Under the pieces are notes generated by a model. It saw only the letters and a program-made list of their open reading frames with translations, searched no databases and was not told where the DNA came from. Source: Candidatus Xenobia bacterium (GTDB lineage: Bacteria; Vulcanimicrobiota; Xenobia; Xenobiales; QWHO01). From it: DNA of 48,038 nt. Numbering within the stretch: position 1 is the first letter of the stretch; every line of letters begins with the position of its first letter. The translations under genes and the position numbers were made by a program. Location of the stretch: positions 1 to 48,038 of the forward strand of contig BTUM01000062.1 of the NCBI GenBank assembly GCA_045863235.1. Reading direction: 5' to 3'. This document shows, one piece after another, positions 133 to 47,115 of the stretch.

Positions 133-807
133 GTGGCTCGGGCCGTGCTGAACTTCCTGAAGAAGAAGGATGAGGACGGGCCGGCCGTCCAGGTGCTGGG
201 CTATCAGAATCAGGTGGTGCGGGTGCTCTCCACCTCCCGCCTTTCGATGAACGCCGAGCTCACGCTCAAGCTGATCCTGCCCGATGGCAGCGCCATGCGG
301 GTAAGTGCCGTACTGCTCACGGAGGAGAACGCCCCCGGCCGGGGCGTGATTTACCAGGCCGAGCTGCAGGGTGGCCCCGAAGTGGGCGATACGCTCGTCA
401 AGCGCCTGCAAGCCCCTTCGCCCCAGGCCCAGACGTCGGCCGCGGGCGATCGCCGGCGCTGGCCCAGGGTCGAGCAGCAGGTTCAAGTGATTTCGCGGCA
501 GCTTCCTGGATTCGTGGCCATGGCCTCGGACCTGGGGGAGGGAGGCATGCGCTTGCGCTTGAGCGCTCCCGTGGTCGAGCGCACCCCGCTCCTCATCGCC
601 TTCGACGTGGACGACACCGCGCCGGCCCCGATCCAGGTGCAGGCTGAGTCGGTCTACTGTTTGGACAATCGCGACGGCTCCTTTTCGGTGGGAGTGCGCT
701 TCGTCGGGCTCCCTCCGGGCCAGGAGAACGCTGTGGAGAAGCTGCATCGCGCCCTGCAGCAGATGCGCAAGAAGCCCGGGAGCAAGGCCTACTCACTCGA
801 GCCATGA
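133..807 (+). CDS. PilZ domain protein (c-di-GMP receptor)
   Basis: RRRWPR (RxxxR) and DLGEGG (D/NxSxxG-like) motifs, C-terminal VGVRF strand. Confidence 0.8.
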   Translation: MARAVLNFLKKKDEDGPAVQVLGYQNQVVRVLSTSRLSMNAELTLKLILPDGSAMRVSAVLLTEENAPGRGVIYQAELQGGPEVGDTLVKRLQAPSPQAQTSAAGDRRRWPRVEQQVQVISRQLPGFVAMASDLGEGGMRLRLSAPVVERTPLLIAFDVDDTAPAPIQVQAESVYCLDNRDGSFSVGVRFVGLPPGQENAVEKLHRALQQMRKKPGSKAYSLEP

Positions 808-3800
808 GCCTGGCCTCCCGGCTCTCGCTGGTTTTCTTCTTTCTCTCCGGCATTACTGGCCTGGTCTATGAAGTGCTGTGGACCCGTCGCCTGACGCTGA
901 CCTTCGGTCACACGACCCTGGCCGTCAGCACTGTCCTGACGGCCTACATGATGGGCCTGGCGCTGGGCAGCGTGATGGGTGGCCGCTTCGCCGACAAGAA
1001 GTCGGCCGACCCCGCCTTCCGTCCCGGCCTGTTCTTGAGCCTCTACGGGGTGCTGGAGTTCTTCGTGGGCATCTGGGCCCTGCTCTCCCTGCCCCTGCTG
1101 GGTCTCGTCGAGAAGGGCTACCTGACCCTCTCGCACCAGGGCTGGAGCGGCCTGCCCCTTCACCTGGCCTGTTTTGTTGGCAGCGTGCTGGTGCTCTTGC
1201 CTCCCACGGTGGCCATGGGGGCCACTCTACCCGTCATGAGCCGTCTCCTGGTGCGCCAGAATCAGGAATTGGGCTCGCTTCTTGCTCGCATTTACGGTAT
1301 CAACACACTGGGAGCGTTTCTGGGGGCCGGCTTGGCGGGGTTCGTGCTGTTGCCCACCCTGGGTTTGCTGGTCTCGCTCTGCCTGGCGGCGGCCATCAAT
1401 CTGGGCATCGGTGTGGCGGCCTGGTTTGTCGGCCGACGCGAAAGCGCGCCCGAGCGCCCGGCTGAAGAGCTCTCCGTCGAGGCACCCGGGGCCCCCGGCC
1501 TGGGCTGGCTGCTGCCGGTTGCCTTCGGTCTGGCCGGCCTGACCTCCATGACCTACCAGATCGGCTGGACGCGTGGGCTAGCCCTCTCGCTCGGCTCCTC
1601 GGTCTACGCCTTCAGCGCGATTCTGACGACCTTTCTGGCCGGTCTGGGACTGGGCAGCCTGCTCTATCCGCGCCTGGCCCGGGGACGCCATCCGCGCCTG
1701 GAGCACCTGGCCTGGCTGCAGATCGGCGTGGGGCTGCTGGGAGCGGCCACCATCCCCATCCTGGGTCAGATGCCCCGCATCTTCTTTCACCTGGCCCCCA
1801 GCTTTGGCACGAGCTTCGGGGCGGTGCTCTCCACCGAGGTTGCTCTGTCGGCCCTGGTACTGGGAGGACCGACTTTCCTGATGGGCCTGGCCTTCCCCCT
1901 CACGAGTCACCTCTACACCCAGGACATGCGCCTGCTGGGCCGTTCCATCGGCGAGGTCTACGGGGCCAACACGATGGGCTGCATCGTGGGCTCGTTTTTG
2001 GCCGGCTTCGTGCTGCTCCCTACTCTGGGTACCCAGAACGCCCTCAAGCTGGCCGTGGTGGTCAATCTGCTGGTGGGTGCGCTGGTTCTGTTCGCTGCCC
2101 GGCGGGCACGCAGCCTGGGCACGGCCCTGGTGGTGGCCGGTCTTGTGCTGGTGGTGCTGCTGCCTCGCTGGGACCCGGGGGTCATGGCCAGCGGGGTCGT
2201 CCTGCAAGCCTTGCGCCATCAAGGCATGTCCGAAAGCGAGCTGCGTCGGACCCTCTATCGTCCCCCCGCCTTCTACAAAGATGGCCTCTCGTGCCTGGTC
2301 AGCGCCAACGTCTTCTCGGACGGCTGGCGCAGCTTTCTGGACATGCGTGTGAACGGGAAGGTGGACGCCAGCCTCGAGCAACTCGATCGCCAGACGATGT
2401 ATCTGACCGGCTACATCCCGGGCGTGCTGCACCAGGGCCCCGAGGACGTGGTCGTGATCGGGCTTGGTGGCGGCATGACCGTGGAGGCCCTGGCCAATCT
2501 TCCTGGCGTCAAGAGCATTGATTGCGCCGAGCTCGAGGGCACCGTGGTGGAGGTCAATCGGCTCTGGCAGGACTACAACGGCCACGTGCTCCAGGACCCG
2601 CGCGTGCGGATGGTCATCACCGATGGGCGCACCTACGTGCTGGGCTCGCCGCGCAAGTTCGACATCATCGCCAGTGAGCCGTCCAACGTCTGGATCGCGG
2701 GCGTGGCCAATCTTTTTACCCACGAGTTCTACCGCAGCTGCCAGGCCCACTTAAAACCCCGGGGGATCATGTGTCAGTGGCTGCAGGCCTACGGCCTCTC
2801 GCGCGAGTGCCTGGGTTACGTGCTGCACAGCTTCTTCGACGTGTTCCCCAACGGGATGGTGTGGCAGAGCAATTTTGGCGATCTGATCCTGATCGGGTCC
2901 AATGAGCCCGTGCAACTCGACCTCGAGCGGCTGCGCCAGCTCTACGACCAGAGCCCGGGCATGCAGCGCAACTTCTTTGCCATCGACCTGTTCCGCCCGG
3001 AGGAGATGATGGGGCACTTCGTGATGACCCGCGAACAGGCTCTGCAGATCTTCGGGCAGTCGCCCTTCAATACCGACGACCTGCCTTTGCTCGAGTTTCA
3101 CGCCCCCCTGCGCCTTTATGACAAGAGCAGCGAGGCGGCCAACTTCGAGCTGATGCGCCGCACCAACAACGGTGCCCTGCCACCCGGCGTGGCGGTGACC
3201 CCCGAGAACCTGCTGCTGGCGGCCCATGCCTGGCTCAACCTGGGAGATACGACCCGGGTGGGCGAGTTCCTCAAGATTTTTCCCAATGCGCTTTTGAAGG
3301 CTCGCTGGCTGGCCGCATCCAACGCGCCCGCCCCCGAGGTGCAGTCGGCTTTCCAGGCTGCCCAGGGGAACAGCGAACTGGGCGCAGGGGTGCCCCCCTG
3401 GCTGTACGCGCGCTGGCTTTTGATCAAGCGCGATTTCCGCGCGGCTCTGCCCTGGTTGGAGAAGGCCGCCCAGGACCCGCCCCCGGGCGGAAGGCTGGAG
3501 ATTTTGTACTGGCTGGGGGCCAGCCTCATGGGCACGGACCAGCCCGCGCGGGCCGCTCAGGTGTTCGAGCAGGCCGTTGAGCCACCCCTGGACAGCCGGG
3601 CCTTCACCGGCCTGGGCCGGGCTTTGCTGCGCCTGCGCCAGCTCGAGCCGGCCTTGACCGCTCTCAAGCAGGCCATCGACCGCAATCCGGCCGACATCGA
3701 AGCTTTCCTGGCCATGGGCGAAGCTTTGACGCTCCAGAAGCGTTATCGGGAGGCGGCCGAGGCCCTCCACCAGGCCTACAAGCTGATGCCTGACCACGCC

Positions 3801-4019
3801 GACTTGCTCGTGGCACTGGGGGTGCTGGCCCTGCATCAGGGTCAACTCGAGGAGGCCATCGGGCGGTTTCGGGCGGCGGCCGAGCTGCACCCGGCCCATC
3901 CGGTGGCCCGCAAAGCCCTGACCGAGCTGGGTCAGCCTCTGCCGGCTCTGCCGCCCGTCACTCGTAGCCCAGAGAGCGCAGCCAGTCCGGGCGCTCCCGC
4001 CAGTCCTCCTTCACCTTGA
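804..4019 (+). CDS. fused MFS-like membrane domain / spermidine synthase-like protein with C-terminal TPRs
   Basis: N-terminal multi-TM region (SGITGLVYEVLWTR, YGINTLGA repeats); SAM-binding IGLGGG, AELE, DGR, DIIASEP; TPR-like C-terminus; ATGA overlap with upstream gene. Confidence 0.85.
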   Translation: MSLASRLSLVFFFLSGITGLVYEVLWTRRLTLTFGHTTLAVSTVLTAYMMGLALGSVMGGRFADKKSADPAFRPGLFLSLYGVLEFFVGIWALLSLPLLGLVEKGYLTLSHQGWSGLPLHLACFVGSVLVLLPPTVAMGATLPVMSRLLVRQNQELGSLLARIYGINTLGAFLGAGLAGFVLLPTLGLLVSLCLAAAINLGIGVAAWFVGRRESAPERPAEELSVEAPGAPGLGWLLPVAFGLAGLTSMTYQIGWTRGLALSLGSSVYAFSAILTTFLAGLGLGSLLYPRLARGRHPRLEHLAWLQIGVGLLGAATIPILGQMPRIFFHLAPSFGTSFGAVLSTEVALSALVLGGPTFLMGLAFPLTSHLYTQDMRLLGRSIGEVYGANTMGCIVGSFLAGFVLLPTLGTQNALKLAVVVNLLVGALVLFAARRARSLGTALVVAGLVLVVLLPRWDPGVMASGVVLQALRHQGMSESELRRTLYRPPAFYKDGLSCLVSANVFSDGWRSFLDMRVNGKVDASLEQLDRQTMYLTGYIPGVLHQGPEDVVVIGLGGGMTVEALANLPGVKSIDCAELEGTVVEVNRLWQDYNGHVLQDPRVRMVITDGRTYVLGSPRKFDIIASEPSNVWIAGVANLFTHEFYRSCQAHLKPRGIMCQWLQAYGLSRECLGYVLHSFFDVFPNGMVWQSNFGDLILIGSNEPVQLDLERLRQLYDQSPGMQRNFFAIDLFRPEEMMGHFVMTREQALQIFGQSPFNTDDLPLLEFHAPLRLYDKSSEAANFELMRRTNNGALPPGVAVTPENLLLAAHAWLNLGDTTRVGEFLKIFPNALLKARWLAASNAPAPEVQSAFQAAQGNSELGAGVPPWLYARWLLIKRDFRAALPWLEKAAQDPPPGGRLEILYWLGASLMGTDQPARAAQVFEQAVEPPLDSRAFTGLGRALLRLRQLEPALTALKQAIDRNPADIEAFLAMGEALTLQKRYREAAEALHQAYKLMPDHADLLVALGVLALHQGQLEEAIGRFRAAAELHPAHPVARKALTELGQPLPALPPVTRSPESAASPGAPASPPSP

Positions 4020-9429: not shown

Positions 9430-9459
9430 GTTCAGAATTCGAACGCGCGGCGCCTTAGC
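9430..9459 (+). repeat. partial copy of the intergenic repeat found at 21745-21854
   Basis: 9430-9450 matches 21767-21787 at 19/21; 9442-9459 matches 21837-21854 at 17/18. Confidence 0.55.
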
Positions 9460-12331
9460 TGAATTTCATGGGGCTTCCCACCAGCAGCGGGTTGTGGCCG
9501 CCGGCGGGATCCAGTGCGTAGGCATAGAGCTCGTGCTGGGAGCCATCGAGATGCTCAGCTGGGATCTGGAACATGAAGCCGTGGTCGCCCGGGTAGCCGG
9601 TGGACTCGTTGACGTCGGAGCGGGGTCGATCCCCCCGAACCCCCCCCACGAACTCGCCCCGGCCTGCCGGGCCGTCTAGATAAAAGTGCAGGTCGATGGA
9701 CTGCTCGGGGCAATTGGGATCGAACGTCCACCCGACGGCCAGACCGCTGGGCTCAATTCGCTCCAGGTGACCGATTGGAGGGGTTGGATAGGGAACCGCG
9801 CCCACGAAGGTTCGGGGCGAGCCCGGAAGCTCGACCAGGCGCCCTCCGACCTCGGCCCTCACCACCAGGGCCTTCTTCTGGCCCGTGACGTAGGGCTTGG
9901 GGATCTGAAAGCGAAAGGCGCCCGGCCCGTCCTCGGGGCTGGGCGTGGCCAGCCCGACGAACTGGCAGATGGAGTTGCTGTCCACGTACATCCTGACCGC
10001 TACCACGCGGTCGGGCTCGGCGGGGTCCCGGGCCCAGCCCTGGACCGATCCGTCCGGTCGAATCAGCTCCAGATCCCCCTCCACCCGGGGAGCACCTTCC
10101 AACCCGGGCTGACCGGGCAAGAGCGAGCGGGCCACCACTTCCTGGAAGCCCTGATCCAGCTTCGGTCCGCCTCGAGCCGAGCGGGCCACCTCGCTGAGCA
10201 CCACCGAGGCCATCAAAGTCAGAGCCGCCGGGTCTTGATCGAAGGCCTGCAGAACGGCTTTGACGAGCGGGTCCTGGCGATTGATCCGCGGGCCGTCCCA
10301 GGAGCAGATCACGGCAGGCTCGTTGGGTCCGCTCACCAGGGAGAGATTCCAGCGCGCCATGAGAAGTTCTGAGCGGGCATCCTGCAAATGGCTCAGAAGC
10401 TCTTGCAGCTTCTCGAGAAAGCGATTCTCGACGGCGGTGGAAGCCGGCTGAGGCCGGGCTGGCTCACTTTCCTGCTGCTTGATCAGAGCCTCCTTTCCCA
10501 GCAGGCGCTCAAGCGTCTCCAGGTCGGTTTCGTCCAGGCACAGGACCTCCGGGCCGGCTTTGTGACCGGGGCTGACCCAGGCCAGGGGAGCTCTCTGGCG
10601 CAGCGACTTCACCGACTCGAAGCTCCTGCCGACTTGGAAGATGGGCAGCTCTTCCAGCCATTCCAGGTCGACCCGGGGCAGGGCGATCTGGCTCAGGCGC
10701 AGTGCCCGGGCGAGACTCTCGGCGGAGCCGGTAGCCAGGTGGGCCCAGCCTCGCAGGGACGAGCGCGAGCAGGGATTGAGGCTCTGGCTGGCCAGCTCCG
10801 TATACAGCTCGGGCAGGAGGGCCAGCCAGCATTCCATAGCCCGGACGTAGAACGCATCTCGACGCACGCCGTCAAAATCTTCCGCCGGGGTGAATGCGCC
10901 TTCCAGCACCACCTCGAGTCCGGTGAGGGGGAGAAGAAGAGGGACCTCGGGCAGTTCGCAGCCATCGAGAATGAGTCGGACCCGGGGAGAACCTCCGCTT
11001 TTACTCAACCCCACCTCTCCCCGCAGTTGCGGAGCGCTCAGCGAGCGGCGCACGGCCATTTCTCTCCCCGAGATCACGGGCTTTGCTCTCCTCTTGCTCC
11101 ACAGCCGTCGGTTGGTCTCGCGGCGCCTGCGATTGTGGATGCGCCGGGTGACGTTGCGCACCCGGTGGCGGAGCAGCTTTCGCAGCTGCTCGAAGCTGGG
11201 CCCGTCATCGAAGAGCACCAGCGGCATGCCCTCCAGCTCCAGGCCCGGATGCCTCTCGCTGGAGCTGGGAACGTCGCCAAGCTCCGCCACGACCTGCAGG
11301 ATTTGCTGCAGGGAGACGCTCTGACACTCTCCTGTGGCCGTGGCCCAGAGGTGTAGACGGGCCAGCGCCTCAGGGGCCACTGCCTCAGCAGCTTCGAAGG
11401 TGAAGATCTCCTGGCGCAACAGGGAATGCCAGTCCCAGTGCTTGACCAGCAGCAGCGGTTGTTCACAAAGACGGGCCACGGATTCGGTGCGGGCAGCCCG
11501 GTAGGCGGCCACCAGGCGCTCGTAGGTGGCATCTCGCACGATGGCGGTCTGGGAGACGTTCTCCAGCAGCTCGTCGCAGCTGAGCACGGCCTGAAAGGGG
11601 AGCACTCGCTCGGGAAGATCCACCCATTCCACCAGCACTCCGGCTCGGAGAAAACCAAGACGGGCTCGTTCGAAGAGTCGGAACCCACCCCACCCCCTGA
11701 AACCTTCCCCCTGGATCAAGACAGCTCCGTAGGGATAGTGCTCTTCCAGGGGCTGCGAGATCAAGCGCCTGTTCAATTTGATGGGAACAGGGGCCAGGGC
11801 ACAGTGCGTCTTCAGCAGGTCGCCTTCGCTCGTTTGCCCGAGCAGGCTGCGAAAGACCTCCCCCATCCGAAGGCCAGGACGATCGCGAACGTGGATGTGG
11901 GTGTGGGCACCTTCCGGTCCACGGCCCAGCACGTCCGGCTTGCCAGGACGAAGCTCCAGCCGGTTGCCTGCGCTGTCTACCCGGGCGAAGCGGGGCTTGA
12001 GCGCCATGCAAGCGCTCAAGCCCAGGCCCAGCTGACGCAAGGAGGAGTCCCCCCGGCTCTCTAACATGGCTGCCTCGGCCCGGCTCAGCTCGTCGGCCTG
12101 AAACGGGGGGCCGTCAAAGCGCATGTGCATGTCGTCCGAGTCGATGCGGAAGGCGATCTCGCTGGCGCCGCGCAATACAGCCGCCTGCACCAGCTCGAGC
12201 ACGTAGGCGTGCGGGTCAGCCAGCTGAAAGCGGCGCATCTTCTGGCGAGCCATCTCCTTGTCCAGGGTGAACTCGCCCTCGGCCACCGGTCGTCCCCCGA
12301 CCATGAGTTGCTCGATCAGCTCTTGCGACAT
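9455..12331 (-). CDS. degenerate Hsp90-like GHKL protein with two C-terminal Ig-like repeats
   Basis: FQLADPHAYVLELVQAA resembles a GHKL N-box without the Asn; FDGPPF replaces DxGxG; C-terminal repeats GWARDP and GWTFDP, each followed by YxD and GxxxFxFxIP. Confidence 0.7.
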   Translation of the reverse strand: MSQELIEQLMVGGRPVAEGEFTLDKEMARQKMRRFQLADPHAYVLELVQAAVLRGASEIAFRIDSDDMHMRFDGPPFQADELSRAEAAMLESRGDSSLRQLGLGLSACMALKPRFARVDSAGNRLELRPGKPDVLGRGPEGAHTHIHVRDRPGLRMGEVFRSLLGQTSEGDLLKTHCALAPVPIKLNRRLISQPLEEHYPYGAVLIQGEGFRGWGGFRLFERARLGFLRAGVLVEWVDLPERVLPFQAVLSCDELLENVSQTAIVRDATYERLVAAYRAARTESVARLCEQPLLLVKHWDWHSLLRQEIFTFEAAEAVAPEALARLHLWATATGECQSVSLQQILQVVAELGDVPSSSERHPGLELEGMPLVLFDDGPSFEQLRKLLRHRVRNVTRRIHNRRRRETNRRLWSKRRAKPVISGREMAVRRSLSAPQLRGEVGLSKSGGSPRVRLILDGCELPEVPLLLPLTGLEVVLEGAFTPAEDFDGVRRDAFYVRAMECWLALLPELYTELASQSLNPCSRSSLRGWAHLATGSAESLARALRLSQIALPRVDLEWLEELPIFQVGRSFESVKSLRQRAPLAWVSPGHKAGPEVLCLDETDLETLERLLGKEALIKQQESEPARPQPASTAVENRFLEKLQELLSHLQDARSELLMARWNLSLVSGPNEPAVICSWDGPRINRQDPLVKAVLQAFDQDPAALTLMASVVLSEVARSARGGPKLDQGFQEVVARSLLPGQPGLEGAPRVEGDLELIRPDGSVQGWARDPAEPDRVVAVRMYVDSNSICQFVGLATPSPEDGPGAFRFQIPKPYVTGQKKALVVRAEVGGRLVELPGSPRTFVGAVPYPTPPIGHLERIEPSGLAVGWTFDPNCPEQSIDLHFYLDGPAGRGEFVGGVRGDRPRSDVNESTGYPGDHGFMFQIPAEHLDGSQHELYAYALDPAGGHNPLLVGSPMKFS

Positions 12332-14256
12332 CGTTGCCTCCAGGTCTGCAGGGCCAGTCGGGCATCCTCCTGGGCGTCCGGGCGCAAGAAGAGCTTGAGC
12401 AGGAGGTAGGCTGCCAGGCAGGGCTCCTTCTGGCTGACTTCGAGCAGGGTCGCGAGCAACGGATGGTCCAGGTTGAGCGCAAGTTCCGCCGGACGAGAGA
12501 GCAGCCCGGCTGGCAGGCGGTCGAGCTCGCCGGTCACGGTGAGCTCGCCCGGGACCGCCTTGCCGGCAACCCGCTCGGGACTGTCAAAATGGGCCAGTCG
12601 AACCTGGGAGATTCGGGCTCCGTTGGAGCAGGCCAGCTTCTGCACGGCCGCCCGGAGAGGGGCTGCCTGCTGCTCGAGCTGCCTGTCGGCCGGGCGCGGC
12701 AAACACCAGTTCTGGGCGGCCGGCACGGGGGGCTGGTCGAACAGAGCTTCCAGCAAGGCCCAGGAACCCTCGCCTGGCCGGGCTTTGAGCACCAGGTTGC
12801 CTTGCTCCTCCAGTGCCTGGACCAGGGGCCCGGTCTCCCAGGCCGTGAGGCAGGGCCGGGCGGCCAGGGCTTCGCGCAGCGAGACTTCGGCTCCCGCGGG
12901 AGTGCGAAACAAGGTGCGCTCCAGTCTCCGGGGCTTTTGGCGCGCGCCGCCCAGAACCTCCACCTGCTCCACCCAGAGGGGATGCTGGCCGTGCCAGGAG
13001 ACCCGAAACTCGAGCTTGTTGCCCTGGAAGGCCCGAAAGGCCAGGGAGATGTCACAGGCCCGATCGCGGTGGGGGAAGTCCTCGCTCTTGAGGTTGCGCA
13101 CAATGAACTGGCAGTTGCTGGCCGCATCATACACGTCCAATTGCGCCACCTCGCCCGGAACGTCCGCCTCGCAGCGCAGGCGGAAGCGGGCCACCGAGTC
13201 GCCCGGCTCCAGATCGGCCACATAGGGGCCGTAGCAGATGTGGCAGCTGCCGTGCCGCCCCGGCACCGCCCGCCAACTGTCCCCCTCGGCTTCGCCATCT
13301 CGGTGGCTCAACTCCGCTCCTGTCCACCGGCGCCTGATGGGCCAGCCAAAGAGGGCCGTGGCGGCGGCGTAGTGCATGCCTGCATCCTGGTTCTCCTGCA
13401 GGCGTCGCTCGAGTTGCTCGAGCAACAAGTCCGGCAACTCGCCCGAGGCGATCTCGCGCACCTCGGCCATCAGGGTGGCGAAGCGGGCATCCTGAACCAC
13501 CCCGTCGCGCGCCAATGTGTGCTCGAGGAAGCGCGAGTCGATCTTCACCGCCAGCCCGGGGAGAGTGTGCTCTTTAATACTCTCGGCCAGGGTCAGGCCG
13601 CGGTTGTAGAAGCCGATGAAAGGCTTGCCATCCGCGGGGTAGCCCACCAGGATCGTGGTGCCCTTGTGGTTCCGGCGCACGGTGCAGGGACCGACGATGT
13701 CGAAGGGCTCGTTCTGCAGCTCGCCCTGGAAGAAGATCTGGCCGTCCACATGTCGACACCAGAAGCGAATCACTTCTCGTGAGCGGTCGATGAGCTGGGC
13801 GCACTCCTCGGGGGTGGCTTTCTTGTAGATGCGGATGCGGGTGCCCTCCACCGGCTCTTCACGCGCCAGGCGCACAAAGGAGCGGTCGGCCTTGAAGATG
13901 ACCCGCCAGTGGGCGCCGTCGCGCGAGGTGTCCACCACAACCGCGTCCGGATTCAGGGCGAAGACCGAGACAAAGCCGATGCCGAAGCGGCCGATCTTGG
14001 TCAGGTCCTCCTCCTTGCCCGAACTGAAGAGCCGGGTCAGGCGGGTATCGATGATCTCGGCGCTCATGCCCTCGCCGGTATCGTCCAGGGAGATCACCAT
14101 GGTGCCGTCCTGGTGCTCGACCTGGATGTCGATGCGGCGGCTGTGGGCGTCCAGCGAGTTCTGGATCAGCTCGCGATAGAAGGAAAGGGGATCGGAGAAC
14201 TGATGGACCAGAGTCTCCAGCGCTCCGCCGGCTTTGCACACCAGACTGTCGGCCAT
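12316..14256 (-). CDS. Hsp90-like GHKL ATPase with inserted beta-sandwich (CBM-like) domain
   Basis: RELIQNSLDA (N-box), DDTGEGM (G1), FSSGK, IGRFGIGF (G2), EGT; insert with YGPY..LEPG...FRL and LEFRVSW. Confidence 0.85.
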   Translation of the reverse strand: MADSLVCKAGGALETLVHQFSDPLSFYRELIQNSLDAHSRRIDIQVEHQDGTMVISLDDTGEGMSAEIIDTRLTRLFSSGKEEDLTKIGRFGIGFVSVFALNPDAVVVDTSRDGAHWRVIFKADRSFVRLAREEPVEGTRIRIYKKATPEECAQLIDRSREVIRFWCRHVDGQIFFQGELQNEPFDIVGPCTVRRNHKGTTILVGYPADGKPFIGFYNRGLTLAESIKEHTLPGLAVKIDSRFLEHTLARDGVVQDARFATLMAEVREIASGELPDLLLEQLERRLQENQDAGMHYAAATALFGWPIRRRWTGAELSHRDGEAEGDSWRAVPGRHGSCHICYGPYVADLEPGDSVARFRLRCEADVPGEVAQLDVYDAASNCQFIVRNLKSEDFPHRDRACDISLAFRAFQGNKLEFRVSWHGQHPLWVEQVEVLGGARQKPRRLERTLFRTPAGAEVSLREALAARPCLTAWETGPLVQALEEQGNLVLKARPGEGSWALLEALFDQPPVPAAQNWCLPRPADRQLEQQAAPLRAAVQKLACSNGARISQVRLAHFDSPERVAGKAVPGELTVTGELDRLPAGLLSRPAELALNLDHPLLATLLEVSQKEPCLAAYLLLKLFLRPDAQEDARLALQTWRQRCRKS

Positions 14257-14274: not shown

Positions 14275-15738
14275 TCAAGGCCGGGGAACGAAGTAGTACA
14301 TCGCACCCGTGCCCCCGGTGTGGCCCACTTCGACGTAGTTGGCCTTGAGAGCCTCCATCGCCTCGCGCGTGAAGTGGGGGCTGTTCTCTTTCCAGGTGAG
14401 CAGGATGAGGTCGAAACGGCGCTCTTCGAACTGGTCGGTCAGCAGCTTCTGATTCCACCAGCCCAGACCGCTCAGCGCGCAGTAGGTGGAGGGGTCGCAC
14501 AGCCAGCTGGTTCGGCCCAGGCAGAGGGGCAGAGCGGAGTATTCGGCCAGAAGGGGGCCGGGGTGTTGCTCGAGCATCTCCTTCAAGCGACGAGCCTGGT
14601 CGATGCGATCTTGCACCCGGGCCGGGGTCCGCCCGCTCAACACGGGCCAGACCTCCTGCTTGTATCGATCGCTGGCTGGCTCTAGATAGGTGCCGTTCAG
14701 GTCGCTCGTGAAGCCCAGCCAGAAGAGCTGGCCTGCCAGCAGCAAGGCCACGGCGCCTCGGGTGACCGGGTCGGAAGCCCAGCGCTGCACCGCCAGCGCT
14801 GCCAGCACGGCCAGAGCCAGTTGTAGCTCGAGGAAGTAGTTGTACCAGCTGAACATGCGCCCGCTCCCCAGCACGATTCCCAGGCTGGTCAAAGTGTAAA
14901 GCAAGAAGACGCGCTCGCTGCGCCAGGCTGGCAGGACTCCAAGCAGGGCCAGCCCCATCAGACAACCGGCCGATGCCGTGTAACCCTTGAGGTAGCCGGT
15001 CATCTGATGGACGTAGTAGGGGAGGGCGTTGTAGCGAAAGAGCTGGTTGAAGAGCTGCCCCTGGGAGGAAGCGTTGAGCCACAGCAGGGTCAGACCGGTG
15101 AAGAGCACGCAGAGCACGACCAGCCGCAGGGCCCGCAGCGGACGGGGCAGCCAGAGCAAGAAAATGGCTACGGGGGCGGCCAGAAACGATTGCTTGGTCA
15201 GGACGGCCATCGACAAACAGAGGGCTACGGCAGCTTCCTGAGCCAGGGGCCTGCGCCAGTCGGGCGCAGCTGCCAGCAGGCCCAGCACGGAGAACATCAG
15301 GGCCAGCGTGTCTACCCGGCAGTAGAAGCTCCAATTGAGCGTCAGGGCGTGGCCCAGGAAGAGCGCCAGGAAAGTGAGGCTGACCAACCAGCCGTGGCGT
15401 TTCTTGAGGGCCACGGCCGTGGCCGCTGCGGTCACGAGGGTGGCCAGAGCGGACAGGGCTCGGGCTGCCCCCAGGTTGGGCTGCTCGCCCTGGAGCAGGC
15501 TGGCCAGGCCGATGTAGAGGGGCGTGTAGAGGCAGGCCTGGAAGGGGGGCTCATCCAGCGAGCGGTAGAGCGGCTCGCCCTGGTGGACCTGGTAGGCCAG
15601 TTGCAGGACCGGTCCCTCGCCGAAATCGATCTCGTACGGGCCGGAAACCATCAGAGTGCCGTGCACCAGCCAGACCAGCCCGTGCATGAGCAAAGCCAGG
15701 ACAACCAGGCCGGTCAGCAGGGGGTAGCGAGGCTTCAT
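14275..15738 (-). CDS. GT-C fold membrane glycosyltransferase (ArnT/PMT-like)
   Basis: Multi-TM protein, first-loop DFGEG, YTPLY, RVD and TKQ motifs. Confidence 0.7.
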   Translation of the reverse strand: MKPRYPLLTGLVVLALLMHGLVWLVHGTLMVSGPYEIDFGEGPVLQLAYQVHQGEPLYRSLDEPPFQACLYTPLYIGLASLLQGEQPNLGAARALSALATLVTAAATAVALKKRHGWLVSLTFLALFLGHALTLNWSFYCRVDTLALMFSVLGLLAAAPDWRRPLAQEAAVALCLSMAVLTKQSFLAAPVAIFLLWLPRPLRALRLVVLCVLFTGLTLLWLNASSQGQLFNQLFRYNALPYYVHQMTGYLKGYTASAGCLMGLALLGVLPAWRSERVFLLYTLTSLGIVLGSGRMFSWYNYFLELQLALAVLAALAVQRWASDPVTRGAVALLLAGQLFWLGFTSDLNGTYLEPASDRYKQEVWPVLSGRTPARVQDRIDQARRLKEMLEQHPGPLLAEYSALPLCLGRTSWLCDPSTYCALSGLGWWNQKLLTDQFEERRFDLILLTWKENSPHFTREAMEALKANYVEVGHTGGTGAMYYFVPRP

Positions 15739-16255: not shown

Positions 16256-16921
16256 TTATTTCCCCACGATAAAACAGGCCGTCGAGTAGGACGAGGTGTA
16301 GGACTGGCTGCCCTGCCCCTCTCGCGCCGTCACGGTGATGTTCACCATGCTGGGCGATTGCCAGGAGAATGCCAGCGTTACCGCACCATTCTGCTGTGCG
16401 CTGGCGATGATCTCCTGGGTCGAGGTCCCGGCCGTGCCGGGCCGATTCTCGCGAATGACATCCAGTCCCTGCACACGGTAGGTGATCGTCCTGTAGTTGC
16501 TGGCAGTGGTGCTGTTCCAGCCACTCTGCATGGGGTTCCAGCCCCCACCGGTGGTCGTCGGGTGAGGCTCGGTGAAGACCACCTGGGCCGCATTGCGAAC
16601 GTTGGCATTGGGCATCAGCACCCCGGTGGGAGCCACCGCCGGGCTGATGCTCATGTAACCGCGGGTAGGGTCAGCCCAGGGGATGGCCTGGCGCAGCTCA
16701 TTGGCGATGGTGCTGGTGATGAAGCGAGCATTTTGAGCCGCGTTGACCTTCTGGGCCACGCTGCCCCACTGGCGCAGAGCCATCTGCAGGCTGCCCACCG
16801 CCACCAGGCCAAAGATTCCTATGAGAAACAGGCTGACCAGCACCTCGGCCAGGGTCAGACCTCGGAGATTTGTTCGTCGCCGAAAAGATCCGCGTATCAC
16901 TGTATTTGCCTTCTTTCTCAA
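16256..16921 (-). CDS. type IV minor pilin (PilW/GspJ-like)
   Basis: Class III signal RG/LTLAEVL with E5 and hydrophobic helix. Confidence 0.85.
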   Translation of the reverse strand: MRKKANTVIRGSFRRRTNLRGLTLAEVLVSLFLIGIFGLVAVGSLQMALRQWGSVAQKVNAAQNARFITSTIANELRQAIPWADPTRGYMSISPAVAPTGVLMPNANVRNAAQVVFTEPHPTTTGGGWNPMQSGWNSTTASNYRTITYRVQGLDVIRENRPGTAGTSTQEIIASAQQNGAVTLAFSWQSPSMVNITVTAREGQGSQSYTSSYSTACFIVGK

Positions 16922-17280
16922 CGGTAGACCATGCTGGCGAGCTCAACCCGCCGTGAGCGCCCGAACTCGAGCCAGACCACCTCGACGTGCAACACCTGGG
17001 TGTTGCCGTCCGGCCCGGCAGTGCACCACCAGCGGGCGCTCGCTCCCGTGGCCAGAGCCGGCAACGGGATGGTGCCGGCAGCGTTGAAGGTGTTCTGGGA
17101 GATCAGGTTGTCCATGTGGCTCTGGGCGATGTAGAGGGCCTGACTCTGCTTGCCGGTGGTCGAGCCCTGCTTGGAGGCGGCCGGCATCAGCCCGAGCAGG
17201 GCCAGAATGGCGACCGTCAGCACCATGAACGAGATGAGCACCTCGATGATGGAGAATCCTCTGCGTCGTGTCCGTCTCAT
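16918..17280 (-). CDS. type IV minor pilin (PilV/GspI-like)
   Basis: RRG/FSIIEVL prepilin motif, 120 aa. Confidence 0.87.
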   Translation of the reverse strand: MRRTRRRGFSIIEVLISFMVLTVAILALLGLMPAASKQGSTTGKQSQALYIAQSHMDNLISQNTFNAAGTIPLPALATGASARWWCTAGPDGNTQVLHVEVVWLEFGRSRRVELASMVYR

Positions 17281-17290
17281 CGCGCGCTCC

Positions 17291-17779
17291 TTACTGCGAG
17301 ACCGTCACACCACCGGTCATCTGCTTGACCGAAATGGTGGTGGTGCGATCGGTGTTGAAGCTGCCCACCGTGATGGTGTAGTTGGTGTTCAGCCCGCCGG
17401 TGGACATATAGTTCAAGGTCAGGTCGGGGGCGCCGGTCAGCCGGATGCTTCGGTGCAGCCTTCCCGCCTGCTCGTTGGCCCCTCCGATGGTGCTCAGGGT
17501 CCAGGACCCTTCGGCACTGCCGGTGCCGCTGACGAGGGTCAGACGCACCACCGGGGTGCTGGCCGCCTGGCCGGCCGGGGGCATCCGGTTGGTGGCCGTC
17601 TGGCGGGCCAGGTTGAGGGCCGACTCGATCTCCTTGGCGGCCTTGTCCTGCTCGCGGTTGTCGATGCCGCGCCGGCCATTGAAGATGACCAACCCCAGCA
17701 CCAGCGCGAGCAGGAAGATCACCACCAGAAGCTCGACCATCGTGAATCCCTTGCGGGTTGGACGCAGGTAAGTGCTCAC
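17291..17779 (-). CDS. type IV minor pilin (FimT/GspH-like)
   Basis: RKG/FTMVELL prepilin motif; LNLARQTA helix. Confidence 0.87.
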   Translation of the reverse strand: MSTYLRPTRKGFTMVELLVVIFLLALVLGLVIFNGRRGIDNREQDKAAKEIESALNLARQTATNRMPPAGQAASTPVVRLTLVSGTGSAEGSWTLSTIGGANEQAGRLHRSIRLTGAPDLTLNYMSTGGLNTNYTITVGSFNTDRTTTISVKQMTGGVTVSQ

Positions 17780-19365
17780 AGCGAACCGGTGGCCCCCCTG
17801 TCGTTGATATTTACGATGTAGACCTCGCCCGTGTTGGGGAAGTTGAGCGGGGGCTTGGTGATCAGCTTGTCGTCGTAGCGGTAGTCTTTGGCGTAGCCGG
17901 TGGAGACCTGCGAGGCCGAGCCTGTGCCCACCGGGCCGCGGGTGCGCTGGATGATGCCTCCAAAGAGGTGCAGCGTGCCGCGCGGGCTGCCCTGGTTGTA
18001 CTTGTCCACGGTGAAGGAGCCGTTCAGGGCCATCATGGTGGCGTGGATGGTGCGGTCCTGGCTGGTGTTGGTGCGGCTCTCGACGATGATGTCCTCTTTG
18101 GCCACGATGCCGAGCACGTCCTGGGCCATGTCCGAGTAGACGAGGTTGTTGCTCAGATGCACGTCATACTTGCTGCCCACGGTGGCGCGGCCCTTCACGG
18201 TGCCTTCCATCACGACGAACCCGTCCACGTGGAAGGTGTCCGCCGAGGTGTCCAGCACGGTGGTCGAGGCGGTGAAGTTCCTGGCCACAGGGTCCCAGTT
18301 CCGGAAGGAGGTCGAGGCCGAGTCCCAGCGCTGGATCACGGCACCGGCAGGGTTCGGGGTGCTGCGGAAGGTCATCTTGAACACGGGCGGCGCGTCACTG
18401 GCACTGATGTTGTTCCCGTTGCGCGTGAAACCGCTCGGGCGCCCGGTCGTCTCATCGAAAACCATGTCGTAGTCCGAGGCGGAGTTGGCCGGGTTCTTGT
18501 AGTGGTTGGGCGGCAGGGCGCCACCGGGGGTATTGATGGCCAGGTTGGTGGTATCGGGCGCGTTGGATTCGGCCAGGGTGCGAATCTTATCGTTGTCGGT
18601 CGGCAACGGGATCTCGGCCTGTCCGCCGGCAAAAGAGAAGTTTGGGCTGTTGTTCAGGGCCACGGGGGCGTTCTGGGCATAAGAGCCGTTGTTCTCGGTT
18701 CGGTAGAATCTGGCCGGGTCCGAGGTGGTCGTGCCATTCGGGTTGCGATAGACGGGCGGGGGTCCGGCCGTGTAAGCGGTGTCGCTCAGGTTGGAGGAGC
18801 GCATCTGGTCGGAGAAGCGCGGGTTGCCGGCGATCGTGAAGTAGCCATTGGTGCGCACCGGACCGGTGATGGCGTCGTTGGAGACGAAGCGGATGATGGC
18901 CCCGCCCACGCCGATGTCGCGGTCGGTAAAGTAGGCATACTTGGAGAACGGCTCTTGCTGGATGAAGGCCACCACCTGGCGTTGGGCCTGGCGGGGGGGC
19001 TGCCCGTAGAATCCGGTGGAAACGACCTCCCAGGCCAACTGCGAGGTGCGGGTGGTGGTGTTGTCCGGGTGCGGACGCACGACGACTGTAAAAGACGTGA
19101 CGCCGGGCTCGAGGGGCAGCGTCACGTTGCCTCCATTCTGCACCCAGGCCGTATCGCGAAGCTGGGTCACCTTGGACATGGCGTAATTCAAACCGGCGCG
19201 AGCCGCGTACATGGCGCGGGAACCGGCGTAGTCTTGCATGGCGGTGCGCGACTCCAGGGTGGAGACGTTGACCGCCATAAAGGTCACCAGCGTGATCAGG
19301 GCGATGATGATGAGGGTCATGGCTAACACGAAGCCGCGACCTCTCCTCGTCCGTTGCCTCAACAT
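17776..19365 (-). CDS. large PilX/GspK-like minor pilin (DUF4900-like C-terminus)
   Basis: RG/FVLAMTL without E5; AMYAARAGL PilX N-terminal motif; FSKYAYFTD, GPVRTNG, GYAKDYRYD; AAGGAG RBS. Confidence 0.85.
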   Translation of the reverse strand: MLRQRTRRGRGFVLAMTLIIIALITLVTFMAVNVSTLESRTAMQDYAGSRAMYAARAGLNYAMSKVTQLRDTAWVQNGGNVTLPLEPGVTSFTVVVRPHPDNTTTRTSQLAWEVVSTGFYGQPPRQAQRQVVAFIQQEPFSKYAYFTDRDIGVGGAIIRFVSNDAITGPVRTNGYFTIAGNPRFSDQMRSSNLSDTAYTAGPPPVYRNPNGTTTSDPARFYRTENNGSYAQNAPVALNNSPNFSFAGGQAEIPLPTDNDKIRTLAESNAPDTTNLAINTPGGALPPNHYKNPANSASDYDMVFDETTGRPSGFTRNGNNISASDAPPVFKMTFRSTPNPAGAVIQRWDSASTSFRNWDPVARNFTASTTVLDTSADTFHVDGFVVMEGTVKGRATVGSKYDVHLSNNLVYSDMAQDVLGIVAKEDIIVESRTNTSQDRTIHATMMALNGSFTVDKYNQGSPRGTLHLFGGIIQRTRGPVGTGSASQVSTGYAKDYRYDDKLITKPPLNFPNTGEVYIVNINDRGATGSL

Positions 19366-19551: not shown

Positions 19552-21675
19552 TTACTGGACGAGGAGATCGTGCTGAGCGGCGTAGAGCAGGAGCTGGACC
19601 CGGTCCTTGAGGTGGAGCTTGCGCAGCAGGTTGTTCACATGGGTCTTGACGGTGCCCTCGCTGATGACCAGGGCCTCGGCGATCTCCTTGTTGCTCAGGC
19701 CCTGGGTAATGGAGCGGAAGATTTCCTGCTCGCGCCCGGTCAGCTCGAGGAAAGCCGAGGGCGCCTGGCGGCGCGCCTTGCTCGCGTGCAGGCGCAGCCC
19801 CTGAGCCGCCTCCGAGCTGAGCACGGTAGCCCCTCCCTGTACGCGCAGCAGGGCCGAGCGCAGCTCCCCGGCCGAGCTGTCTTTATCTAACAGGGCCACG
19901 GCCTCCAGTTCGACGAACTTCTCGATCTGCTCGGCCGGTCGCGTCGCCAGGGCGACGAGACGACCCGCGGGGATCTGTTCGGGCAGGTCGTCGAGGTCGA
20001 TGACGTGGAGCTCGAGGCCCTCCCCCGGCTCGCACAGCTCGAAGTCACGCCGCAGGCTGCGACGCAGCCAGGCAGCCAGGGCCGGTTCACGCACCCAGCA
20101 GCCGACCCGCAGGGCGGGTCGCTGAGGAGCGGATTGATCGGGCTCGACCTCGGTCACGGACGGGACAGGCCGGGCCTCTCGCACTGGAAGCACGATGCGA
20201 AGACGTTCGCCGGGCTCATTCTCCAGGTAGGCCTCGTGGCTCTTGAGAATTTGTCGCAGCAGCCCGGCTCCGTCCGATTCTGTAGCGTTGCCATTGATCC
20301 AGTGACGTACCTGGCTGGCCAGGCTGGCTTCCTGGGGGGTCAGCTCGAGCCAGACCTGCTCTTGATGCAATCGCACCGCCAGCCGCAGCTTGCTGCCCGG
20401 AGGCGACTCCTCGATCAGGCGGCGCAGCAAGGTGGAGCAGAGCAGGCCGAGCTGCTCGGGGTCGCCGGCCAGCCGACACTCCTCCCCCTTCACTTCCAGC
20501 TCGATCTCGCGCTCTCGCGCCAGACCGCTCAGGGACTGGGCGACTTCGTCCAGCAAAGCATCCAGCTCCACATCCACCATCCGCGTGCTCCAGCGGCCCT
20601 GGCTGAGCGCCTCGGTCAGGCTCAGGTTGTGGACCAGGCCACGCAGGTAGCGCGCCTGCGAAGCCAGCTCGGCGTTGCCATAGCTCTCGCACAGCTCGAC
20701 CAGACGCCGGGAAGGGCCTCGCAGCTCGTGCAGCACGACCGAGACAGCCTCCTGGCGCAGCCGCTCGAGCCTCTCCTCCAGCTGCAGGTCGCGAAGATGT
20801 AGCAATGACCGCTGCGATGCCAGCTCGACCCGCTTGGAGCGAAGCGGGATCTGGGTTCCGTCGGACCGGGTCAACAGCCAGCGCTGCTCATCCTGGCGAA
20901 CCAGGGGCAACTCCTCGAATTGGCGGCCAGTCCAGTCCTCCCCGGCCAGGTCGCGGGCAGCCGGGTTGGCCAGGGTCACTTTCTGGTCGGCATCCAGGCT
21001 CAGCCAGGCGTCTGGAATCGAGCCCACCAGTGCCTCCCAGTCGCTTCGCTGGCGGTCAAGCTCTTGCAGGCGCAGCTCCAGGACTTCCAACATGTCGTTT
21101 AAGGCTTGCCCCAGCTCGTTTAGCTCGGGCTGAGTAAAGGGTGATGCGCGCCAGGAAAGCTCTCCTTCGCGTACCCGGCGGGCCAGCCCCGCCAGGTCTT
21201 CGATGGGCTTGAGCAGCACGCCGAAGAGCCAGTAGAGCAGACCGACCAGTCCGACCAGGGTGCCGAACATCAAGACACCTCCAGCGATGAGCTGGATGCG
21301 AAGCTGCTGAGCCCTCTTTTCCTCGGCCTCCAGGATGGATTGCAGGGCCGCCTGCTCATAACGGTCGAGTGCCAGCGCCAGCGTCTCCTGATTGCCTCCG
21401 ATGAGAGCCCTTTCCAGGGCGTCCCGACCGCTCAGGTCGGACAGTTGGACCTCCCTCTCGCCCCGACGAAGCTTCTCCAGCGCCAGCAGCGCCTGCACGC
21501 CGTCCTGGGTCTCATTGGAGATCTGTTGCATGCGACCCAGACCGACCAGGGAGGTCGCGATCATGATGAGGCAAGCCAGCAGGATCAAGAGAAAGATGCC
21601 CATCACTGTGTTGCGCAACGGGTCGGGCCCCGAGTGAAGCAGCAGGCCGGTCAGCCGGGAAGGTTTCTGGCTCAC
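19552..21675 (-). CDS. membrane hybrid regulator: 2 TM - HAMP - PAS - HisKA - degenerate HATPase - REC-like - LuxR HTH
   Basis: HAMP (PIEDL...ELNELGQALNDM), PAS (SIPDA...ANPAA), LHELRGP, intact LuxR LTGREQEI...SNKEIA...TVKTHVNNLLRKL. Confidence 0.8.
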   Translation of the reverse strand: MSQKPSRLTGLLLHSGPDPLRNTVMGIFLLILLACLIMIATSLVGLGRMQQISNETQDGVQALLALEKLRRGEREVQLSDLSGRDALERALIGGNQETLALALDRYEQAALQSILEAEEKRAQQLRIQLIAGGVLMFGTLVGLVGLLYWLFGVLLKPIEDLAGLARRVREGELSWRASPFTQPELNELGQALNDMLEVLELRLQELDRQRSDWEALVGSIPDAWLSLDADQKVTLANPAARDLAGEDWTGRQFEELPLVRQDEQRWLLTRSDGTQIPLRSKRVELASQRSLLHLRDLQLEERLERLRQEAVSVVLHELRGPSRRLVELCESYGNAELASQARYLRGLVHNLSLTEALSQGRWSTRMVDVELDALLDEVAQSLSGLAREREIELEVKGEECRLAGDPEQLGLLCSTLLRRLIEESPPGSKLRLAVRLHQEQVWLELTPQEASLASQVRHWINGNATESDGAGLLRQILKSHEAYLENEPGERLRIVLPVREARPVPSVTEVEPDQSAPQRPALRVGCWVREPALAAWLRRSLRRDFELCEPGEGLELHVIDLDDLPEQIPAGRLVALATRPAEQIEKFVELEAVALLDKDSSAGELRSALLRVQGGATVLSSEAAQGLRLHASKARRQAPSAFLELTGREQEIFRSITQGLSNKEIAEALVISEGTVKTHVNNLLRKLHLKDRVQLLLYAAQHDLLVQ

Positions 21676-24546: not shown

Positions 24547-25548
24547 GTGAGATTTCCTCTCGATTTTGCCCTGACCCAGGCCAAGCACATGGTGCAGCAG
24601 CGCGCCAAAGGAAGGAAGCGCTTCCCGACCGTCTGCATGCTCGAGCCGCTCTATACGTGTAACCTCGCCTGCATCGGCTGCTCGACCGAGCGCCACACCG
24701 GCAAGTTGAAGGACCGCCTGTCGGTGGAGACCTGCCTGAAGGCGGTGGAGGACTCCGAAGTTCCCACGGTGGCCGTGTGCGGCGGCGAGCCGATGCTCTA
24801 TCCCGAGTTGCCCGAACTGCTCGGCGAGCTGATGCGGCGCGGCAAATACATCATTTTGTGCACCAACGCCCTGTTGCTTGACACCAAGCTGTTCGGTGTG
24901 ATCCCGCCTTCCAAGCAGCTTTTCGTCAACGTCCACCTCGACGGCATGCGCGACACCCACGACATGGTGTGCGCTCGCCAGGGCGTATTCGACAAAGCCA
25001 TCGAGATGATCAAAGAGAGCAAGCGCCGAGGTTATCTGACTCTGACCAACACCACGGTCTACAAGGAGACCGACATGGACGAGGTCGAGCAGCTTTGTGA
25101 CCTCTTGACCAGCTTCAACGTGGACGGCATCCTGATCTCACCTGGCTATCACTACGAAACGGTCAAGCGCGACGTGTTCCTGACCCGTGAGCAGATCCAT
25201 GAGAAGTTCAAGCGGGTGCGCGAGCTGTCGCGCCGCTACAAGCTCACTGCCACGCCGGCTTTCCTCGACTTCGCAGCCGGGCTCAAGGAGCTGCTTTGCT
25301 CGCCCTATTCAACCGTGAATTTCACGCCTAAGGGCTGGAAAGGCCCGTGCTACTTGATCGGTGATAAGTACTACGCCGACTTCAACGAATTCTGGAACGA
25401 TGTGGACTGGAACTACTGGGTGACCCGCAAGGACCCCCGCTGCGCCAACTGCAAGATGCATTCGGGCTTCGAGCAGAGTGCCGTGGATGAGGCTTCCAAG
25501 AGCGTTTCGGGCATGCTGCGTCTGGCTGCCTGGCACGTGAGCGGTTGA
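24547..25548 (+). CDS. hpnH: adenosyl-hopene transferase (radical SAM)
   Basis: MLEPLYTCNLACIGC (CxxxCxxC), GGEP, C-terminal DPRCANCKMHSGFE; GAGGAGG RBS; shc nearby. Confidence 0.93.
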   Translation: MRFPLDFALTQAKHMVQQRAKGRKRFPTVCMLEPLYTCNLACIGCSTERHTGKLKDRLSVETCLKAVEDSEVPTVAVCGGEPMLYPELPELLGELMRRGKYIILCTNALLLDTKLFGVIPPSKQLFVNVHLDGMRDTHDMVCARQGVFDKAIEMIKESKRRGYLTLTNTTVYKETDMDEVEQLCDLLTSFNVDGILISPGYHYETVKRDVFLTREQIHEKFKRVRELSRRYKLTATPAFLDFAAGLKELLCSPYSTVNFTPKGWKGPCYLIGDKYYADFNEFWNDVDWNYWVTRKDPRCANCKMHSGFEQSAVDEASKSVSGMLRLAAWHVSG

Positions 25549-26195
25549 ACGAATCCCTGGAGGTTCTTCTCTTGGGGCCGCGCGAATGGCGGCCCCTTTT
25601 TCATGTGCGCAAGCTCTGGCAGGTAGAGGCCCTTTACTGGGGGCACTACCTGGCGCGCTTCGCACCCCTGGATATCTGGCTGCAGACCCGGGGCCTGGCT
25701 CGCTCGCGCGACGACTTTCGCTTTGGCGAGACGCCCTGGGTTACGGGGTTGGAGTTGCTGAAGCTGGCCGAGGTGGGCCCGGAGGACACGCTCTACGACC
25801 TGGGGGCGGGACGGGGCAAAGTGGTCTTTCTGGCAGCCCTGGCCAGCGGCTGCCGAGCCATCGGGATCGAGCTCCTGGGCGGATACAACTACGTCTCGCG
25901 GCGTCTGGCGCGGTGGCTCAGGATCGAGAACGCGGTTTTCCGCGACGAAGACTTCCTGCGCACCGACTTGAGCCCGGCCTCGGTGGTCTACCTGGCCGGC
26001 ACCACCTGGTCGGCCGAAACCCGAGAGCGACTGGGGGAGAGGCTGGACACGCTCTCGCCCGGTTGCCGCGTGCTCTCGGTGAGTCATGAATGGCAGCGCC
26101 CCCGCCTGGACCTGGTGGGCGAGAGCCAGCACCTGTTCAGTTGGGGGCGCGCGAAAGTCTATCGCTACCGGGTCAGCGACTGGATGGGTCCATGA
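25545..26195 (+). CDS. class I SAM-dependent methyltransferase (DOT1-like motif pattern)
   Basis: FGET, YDLGAGRGK, GIEL, DF motifs; TTGA overlap with hpnH. Confidence 0.8.
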   Translation: MNESLEVLLLGPREWRPLFHVRKLWQVEALYWGHYLARFAPLDIWLQTRGLARSRDDFRFGETPWVTGLELLKLAEVGPEDTLYDLGAGRGKVVFLAALASGCRAIGIELLGGYNYVSRRLARWLRIENAVFRDEDFLRTDLSPASVVYLAGTTWSAETRERLGERLDTLSPGCRVLSVSHEWQRPRLDLVGESQHLFSWGRAKVYRYRVSDWMGP

Positions 26196-26793: not shown

Positions 26794-26843
26794 ACCTCCA
26801 GAGCTTCGTCCCGGTTAGTTCGATGAATCCGCGCGCGGTGCCT

Positions 26844-31702: not shown

Positions 31703-31929
31703 CGCTACCGTCCTGTTGCGTCGTCTGCTTGAGGAAAATTCATTAACCCGGAACCTGGCCAGGTTTCTTCGCCGGTCCTTCATGTCCTGCAGCGGGGCTT
31801 GCAACAGAGCCGATCTGAGCGGTCCCAAAAATTGTTGTCCAACCTTAACCATGTTTCATGCATTTTTAAGCCGCACAGCGCATATTCCGAATAGAAACCG
31901 GTGCGAGGCACCGATGGAGGTCGACGGCT

Positions 31930-43616: not shown

Positions 43617-43622
43617 AGCGGT

Positions 43623-46535: not shown

Positions 46536-46709
46536 TTCTTTCTTTCACCTCGGGTACGTTCTACTTGGTCGCGCTTGCCTGTGCGGAAAAGCCGCCTGCG
46601 CGGTGTGAGGAAGCTTCCTATCTCCTGGAAGCAGGAAAACACCAGCGGGAGCTCTTCCCCTGGTGTCCGGGTTGCCAGCCGTCTATCCTTTCGGCTGAGT
46701 TGGGGGCAT

Positions 46710-46967: not shown

Positions 46968-46984
46968 GGGTTAACCTCCATTGA

Positions 46985-47045: not shown

Positions 47046-47049
47046 GGGG

Positions 47050-47079: not shown

Positions 47080-47115
47080 CATTGGGGTGATGTGTGAACG
47101 AATCTCGGGCAAAGA

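Follow-up and report, generated by a model that had tools for sequence, protein, structure and literature searches.

Within the window, the whole 48,038-nucleotide stretch of DNA that was analysed, two overlapping genes on the reverse strand, here called A and B, represent a real and conserved Hsp90-derived system that is apparently undescribed, no earlier description having been found in the literature searched. Comparison of the sequences showed that the losses in the two proteins are complementary: A keeps the catalytic residues without the N-terminal strap, while B keeps the strap without the nucleotide-binding residues. The first-pass annotation had put forward a heterodimer of the two proteins, and this complementary retention gives that idea a specific argument.

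Domain architecture of A and B

Gene A (12316-14256, 646 aa) encodes a divergent full-length Hsp90-like ATPase with the N-M-C domain order and all catalytic motifs intact, and gene B (9455-12331, 958 aa) encodes a pseudo-ATPase Hsp90 paralogue that consists of a dead N domain, two middle modules, a C domain and a two-repeat tail. The coordinates, lengths and 16-nt overlap given in the first-pass annotation were exact, and every motif it cited is present in the sequence. The overlap, together with a Shine-Dalgarno-like GGAGG at 12337-12341 inside A (12316-12341 in all, reverse strand), points to translational coupling, the ATG start codon of B lying within the final codons of A and the GGAGG 5 nt before it. 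A promoter scan of the locus gave no site. Four RNA runs contain the stretch as contigs; these say nothing on transcription, because coverage is equally flat across the flanks and contigs cannot show transcription. The suggested paralogy was borne out by the family profiles of A and B, which align over 271 columns (99.2%, E 9.7e-20), with a further profile match between their C-terminal segments (93.8%, E 1.8e-7), while pairwise BLASTP gave a weak match (22% over 258 aa, E 0.005). No description of a system with this layout was found in the full-text literature, in keeping with what had been stated before, though large published domain-architecture tables could list the family.

A genome scan gave at least 359 confirmed loci, of which the best 80 were kept; these hold 81 A genes, and 76 were informative after 5 that end at a contig edge had been dropped. 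The N-terminal GHKL domain of A (aa 1-~185, 13702-14256) matches Pfam HATPase_c_3 (E 2.8e-13) and carries E29, N33, D59-x-G61-x-G63 and G89/G92/G94, but not the strap Phe. Each of these eight residues is kept in 80 to 81 of the 81 A proteins in the best 80 of at least 359 loci, so that the retention of the Bergerat motifs ExxxN, DxGxG and GxxGxG, first noted for this one protein, extends to its relatives. In the large subdomain of the middle domain (aa ~186-300, 13357-13701), invariant R250 (80 of 81 A proteins in the same best 80 loci) occupies the position of the Hsp90 catalytic-loop Arg by alignment, a placement inferred via the A-B and B-HtpG alignments. It is followed by a lineage-specific insert (aa ~305-437, 12946-13344), present in 27 of 120 proteins of the A-family alignment, which is a beta-sandwich resembling modules of glycan-related proteins (TM 0.70-0.90 against Atlas structures, all below the tool's bar for naming a family). 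The small middle subdomain and the dimerisation-type C-terminal domain (aa 438-646, 12316-12945) align to the M and C domains of HtpG and to the C-terminal part of B. A begins directly with the GHKL helix, and the N-termini of A proteins are short and unconserved; dN/dS of the A N domain was 0.11-0.13 in three congeners.

When the A-family profile was compared with PDB, the best 60 matches were all Hsp90s, full-length chains matching in two stretches, N and M-C. Against HtpG of related genomes A aligned over 537 columns (98.6%) in the N-M-C order, although the insert of A throws the two sequences out of register within the large middle subdomain. From its sequence, A is apparently a working Hsp90 relative and a predicted ATPase. 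It is not canonical HtpG, as the first-pass annotation had also held, scoring 38 bits in comparison to a cut-off of 371 for NCBIfam PRK05218 and giving no PF00183 match. Like A, the PRK14083 HSP90-family protein is a divergent bacterial Hsp90 paralogue found alongside canonical HtpG, but A scores 40 bits against its cut-off of 455, and a protein that we take to be PRK14083-like falls next to HtpG in our tree, separate from A and B.

B gave no match to any Pfam family and none in PADLOC, and a single marginal one in NCBIfam. Its N-terminal helix, strap and helix 1 (F21, D24, A28, K31, Q36 and L37; 12212-12331) are its best conserved part and belong to a dead GHKL domain (aa 1-~190, 11762-12331). 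Two tandem Hsp90-middle-like modules follow (aa ~191-625, 10457-11761), and the duplication proposed earlier was recovered as a profile self-match (98.9%, E 1.6e-17). The C-terminal domain (aa ~626-745, 10097-10456) matches the C-terminal segment of A, and the family alignment sets off a lineage-specific tail of two ~95-aa repeats (aa 752-957, 9461-10078), presumably Ig-like. The GHKL/Hsp90 fold assigned to the B N-terminus agrees with the Atlas model of B 1-300, which resembled HtpG clusters at TM 0.69-0.72. Direct B-HtpG profile scores were weak (20-38%; PDB E 0.14), and the N-M-C plan of B is drawn for N and M from the Atlas model and for M and C through A. Relatives of B have from one to eight or more middle modules.

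Among B proteins of the best 80 of at least 359 loci, the Mg-binding Asn is replaced by A, C, S, G, L or T in all of the 83 rows listed of 84, and the catalytic-Glu position is kept in 45 of 84. The reported loss of this Asn thus stood, and that of DxGxG stood in part, since a DG remnant persists (D in 53 of 84, G in 73 of 84 in these loci); the G2 box is also replaced, and the position of the middle-domain Arg is R in just 5 of 84. Two simple explanations of B were ruled out: it is not a pseudogene, its dead N domain being under purifying selection (dN/dS 0.07-0.16 in three congeners), nor a natural lidless mutant, its lid being as long as that of A (31 aa). The rate of evolution is higher in B than in A (mean tree distance 3.7 against 2.5), and the B family is large and unannotated: it comprises 6098 clusters at 50% identity (E up to 0.001), A-type proteins being included in this number.

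The strap and the active site

Bacterial HtpG, yeast Hsp82, TRAP1 and Grp94 share the N-M-C order with A and B, but known Hsp90s consist of two identical subunits, each with a single middle domain, whereas here the catalytic residues and the strap are split over two paralogues and the middle domain of B is repeated. In canonical HtpG the strap Phe lies 25 residues before the catalytic Glu; in the best 80 of at least 359 loci a Phe at this distance from the Glu position was found in 74 of 80 B proteins in comparison to 1 of 80 A proteins, and the Phe-to-Glu spacing was 25 in 79 of 80 B proteins. The most conserved residues of B precede the fold proper and align without gaps to the N-terminal strap and first helix of HtpG, with the strap register identical in the two.

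The same division recurs further away. A distant Nannocystaceae subfamily repeats the split of strap and catalytic residues, as judged by eye at four loci (L121, L126, L127 and L128), with a long live gene (~1000 aa) and a short dead one (~515 aa), and a third Nannocystaceae subfamily (two loci, L122 and L125) likewise pairs live with dead. In a quick tree of 53 rows a branch with a support of 99 divides all 27 dead proteins from the live proteins and HtpG, a separation that long-branch attraction could also produce.

Engineered yeast heterodimers offer the closest comparison. According to the available text of one study, removal of residues 1-24 from one Hsp90 subunit eliminated the ATPase of the other, and a dead lidless subunit stimulated its partner (PMC5018835). 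The Hsp82 constructs described there, in which wild type is combined with a D79N, E33A, lidless or strap-less subunit, have one active site per dimer, as would the proposed A/B clamp, and in them the dead subunit can support or stimulate its partner if residues 1-24 are kept (PMC5018835, available text). They differ in being laboratory constructs, and the lid of B is not shortened. Earlier work cited in the same text found that Hsp82:D79N heterodimers, with a subunit dead for ATP binding, do not support yeast growth (PMC5018835), which counts against a simple transfer of the strap model to A/B.

Conservation of the tandem and the wider gene set

The coupled tandem is conserved, and homologues are not usually single: among the 76 informative A genes of the best 80 of at least 359 loci, a B gene starts -21 to +98 nt from the A stop in 65, across several phyla. 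The remainder comprise 2 A genes with B within 460 nt, 1 A-B fusion, 1 with B upstream only and 7 without B in the locus. The 63 pairs used for trees came from Myxococcota (32), Vulcanimicrobiota (7), Elusimicrobiota (6), Pseudomonadota (6), Nitrospirota (1) and unassigned sources (11), labels that may be imprecise where taken from MAG titles, and cultured hosts include Nannocystis punicea, Plesiocystis pacifica and Paraliomyxa miuraensis. In a second, hand-picked Myxococcota set (18 loci of 69 matches), 18 of 19 A genes adjoin a B. Seen from the B side, 61 metagenome loci, some of them near-duplicates, have an A-like gene directly upstream in 50 cases, and in 43 of these the locus contains the A catalytic motif; the other loci comprise 1 fusion, 2 in which B comes after another B and 8 with none of these. 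Up to five B genes may be arrayed around one A gene (L048, L040, L072 and L097). Three A-B fusions were seen, which look like one lineage; judged by the geometry of the Hsp90 dimer, their linker of ~10 residues from the C end of A to the N start of B is a misfit with an intramolecular parallel dimer. The A and B trees are congruent (r 0.76), which was not counted for binding because it is expected from gene linkage alone.

In the source genome a B follows each of the 3 A genes, and one further full B is unlinked, making 4 full B genes; 18 of its 22 B-like genes lack the C domain, and in the alignment 14 of these 18 truncated genes keep the strap Phe and none the Asn. Of 41 related genomes, the same 27 contain A and B, among them all 21 genomes of two families; three genomes whose A is unlinked also have an unlinked B in which a C-domain match is preserved. 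The number of B-profile matches, which includes matches to A and to repeats, is 20-57 in 21 of these genomes and 2-6 in six; the remaining 14, all small, have none. Canonical HtpG coexists in 37 of the 41, which rules out that A/B replaces HtpG; PF00183 was not found in the source assembly (97.6% complete) and is present in all four congeners.

What had been proposed as a two-gene system is not one, since the A/B pair belongs to a larger set that includes a coiled-coil gene, a gene X, an optional AAA+ gene, several A/B pairs and many truncated B genes. Clustering of neighbours revealed upstream of A a cassette of a ~350-aa coiled-coil protein, a ~330-aa protein X and an AAA+ ATPase, found near A in 10, 19 and 11 of the best 80 of at least 359 loci, respectively. 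Genome-wide, X and AAA+ were present in 26 of 26 other A/B-bearing relatives and in 0 of 14 relatives without A/B. In 201 Myxococcota genomes A was found in 42, X in 38, the coiled-coil protein in 34 and AAA+ in 5, the last three all within the A set; X is single-copy (38 of 42 A-bearing in comparison to 0 of 159 other genomes) and usually lies beside the coiled-coil gene, sometimes with AAA+. All these co-occurrence counts score the top candidates per genome, and kin are not independent. X and the coiled-coil protein matched nothing specific in PDB, Pfam, NCBIfam or PHROGs, the coiled-coil protein matched none of the PspA, Snf7 or TelA models, and its identification as TelA was not supported (0.7% against two TelA sequences). 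The AAA+ profile had no PDB match at E 0.001. An invariant W-P-D-I-D was observed in its Walker B region (L036 6233-7981; L134 3669-5378), which is atypical, as the usual AAA+ Walker B is a hydrophobic run followed by DE. In several Xenobia-type genomes (L241, L247, L036 and L116) the cassette lies beside primase-, sigma-70- and pseudouridine synthase-like genes (by eye), which places it in the core genome.

The cassette was not found in the source assembly. In a congener (L134 1442-7025) the coiled-coil gene, X, AAA+ and a fourth A lie just past DNA that matches 43301-47802 of the window, whose last 236 nt (47803-48038) differ from the congener before the contig ends. An assembly gap is the likely cause of the absence, and the cassette may instead have been lost.

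Upstream of A in the window, at a distance of 18 nt, lies a gene for a hydrophobic membrane protein (14275-15738, 487 aa) with no Pfam match, which we take to resemble a GT-C glycosyltransferase; it was not counted in the system because it recurs beside A only in close kin, and the glycan-module-like insert of A may or may not relate to it. Elsewhere the window holds four co-directional genes with pilin-like N-termini by eye and no Pfam match at E 1e-8 (16256-19365), hopanoid-type genes that include a radical SAM protein with DUF3463 and a squalene-hopene cyclase (24547-31852), a 1071-aa spermidine-synthase-like protein with TPR repeats (804-4019), a 707-aa protein whose N-part looks by eye like a sensor kinase and whose C-terminus carries a LuxR HTH (19552-21675), and a papain-like, probably secreted protease matching Peptidase_C70/C39 (6918-7538).

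A proposed asymmetric clamp and its alternatives

Judged from these sequence comparisons, A and B probably form a complex of some kind. At about even odds, they would together make an asymmetric Hsp90-type clamp of two dissimilar subunits, working as a dedicated chaperone or remodeller: A would hydrolyse ATP, and B would contribute the strap and specificity. A and B would join via their C domains; binding of ATP to A would let the strap and helix 1 of B swap onto A and so license the single active site of A, and the repeated middle modules and add-on domains of B would set clamp size and client range. More tentatively, the single-copy coiled-coil protein and X, with AAA+ where present, could be a common client or co-factor of several A/B pairs, and truncated B copies without a C domain might act as adaptors or regulators that dock by the same N-terminal surface. 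The tandem, the fusion, the complementary motifs, the branch of dead proteins, the selection on B, the yeast precedent, the co-occurrence of X, coiled-coil protein and AAA+, the housekeeping neighbours and the lack of matches to mobile elements argue for this proposal; the yeast D79N result, the unshortened lid of B, the fusion linker, the 7 of 76 A genes without B in the best 80 of at least 359 loci, the absence of the C domain from 18 of the 22 B-like genes in the source genome and the cassette not found in the assembly argue against it.

The first-pass annotation leaned towards defence, which the mobility and neighbourhood data did not support. The 85 neighbours of 20 loci in the source genome are housekeeping genes or genes without known function, and PADLOC 2.0, run on these and five window genes, gave generic housekeeping cross-matches only. 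No known anti-phage system was found in PADLOC as a full-length match plus partner genes, A matching the generic GHKL core only. Searches of IMG/VR, PLSDB and INPHARED gave no A-family member, and those of IMG/VR and PLSDB no B-family member, the IMG/VR matches of both being remote GHKL ones. Hsp90-like HD/calcineurin defence proteins, Tiamat and sacsin share with A/B the Hsp90-related GHKL domain, the middle-domain Arg and variable add-on domains. However, no fused effector domain was found in A/B; the HD/calcineurin proteins are set apart by their descriptions through an N-terminal effector domain absent from A, and the NOV_C / PD-(D/E)xK nuclease fused to GHKL in Tiamat has no counterpart in A or B, nor does the available text mention a dead partner for such Hsp90-like defence proteins (10.64898/2026.09.30.754977). 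The SACS and TmtA profiles match A weakly and in the GHKL core only (SACS 29.9 against a cut-off of 32.8 bits on 30 residues, and 48.8 against 50), and the C32 paralogue, which passes the SACS cut-off at 38.6, does so with a match confined to the same core.

A regulated conflict or immunity system, with B as diversifying sensors, A as an ATP switch and the coiled-coil protein or X as effector, nevertheless has points in its favour: the expansion of B, which reaches 20-57 matches in each of 21 genomes, its variable C-termini with TPR tails in 3 of the 22 B-like proteins scanned, the several B genes per A in arrays of the best 80 of at least 359 loci, the faster evolution of B (3.7 vs 2.5), the patchy spread (42 of 201 Myxococcota) and the precedent of Hsp90-like defence proteins with variable C-terminal domains (10.64898/2026.09.30.754977, available text). 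Against these, no nuclease or other effector domain was found in A or B, PADLOC and the virus and plasmid databases searched gave the results above for the 90 neighbours and both families, and A/B occurs in all 21 genomes of two families among its kin; by analogy such a system may exist here, but we regard it as unlikely. In its apparent role A/B resembles a housekeeping system more than a mobile antiviral module. Predation has been suggested for a related marine family (PMC9259500, available text), and a link to a predatory lifestyle is only a lead, as 159 of 201 Myxococcota are without A.

Less probable again is that A acts as an ordinary Hsp90 homodimer and B as a separate non-catalytic scaffold or co-chaperone without a shared clamp. 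The 7 of 76 A genes without an adjacent B in the best 80 of at least 359 loci, the unlinked and truncated state of most B-like genes in the source genome, and tree congruence expected from linkage alone would fit it; the strap that Hsp90 homodimers need in trans (PMC5018835, available text) is however found in 1 of 80 A proteins in these loci, A and B share the same 27 of 41 genomes, and unlinked A is accompanied by unlinked B with a C-domain match in three genomes. The least probable reading, by analogy, is a structural polymer loosely likened to ESCRT-III/Vps4 or PspA, in which A and B would form rings or filaments of variable size as head-to-tail or trans-dimers and AAA+ would disassemble a coiled-coil polymer, since the short fusion linker, the B proteins of ~3000 aa with as many as 10 matched stretches and the all-coiled-coil partner adjoining the AAA+ gene are set against a coiled-coil protein without PspA, Snf7 or TelA match, AAA+ in 5 of 201 Myxococcota in comparison to A in 42, and no transmembrane segment by hydropathy in A, B, X or the coiled-coil protein.

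An extension of the asymmetric clamp, possible but held with less confidence than the clamp itself, is an ancient multi-component machine, a natural heteromeric Hsp90 with one catalytic subunit and an expandable dead repertoire of tens per genome, whose dead subunits would be interchangeable specificity or size modules converging on a core of coiled-coil protein and X, with or without AAA+. If true, this would be a bacterial counterpart of co-chaperone and adaptor diversification, built out of Hsp90 itself. The finding gives a fold and a partner to the large unannotated B family and exposes two uncharacterised proteins found only in A-bearing genomes. It suggests that a machine otherwise known with two identical subunits also has an undescribed form built from two different ones. 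The need for ATP in both Hsp90 subunits and the asymmetric cycle have so far been studied with engineered heterodimers, and A/B looks like a natural experiment on the same questions, with catalysis in one gene and the trans-acting strap in the other.
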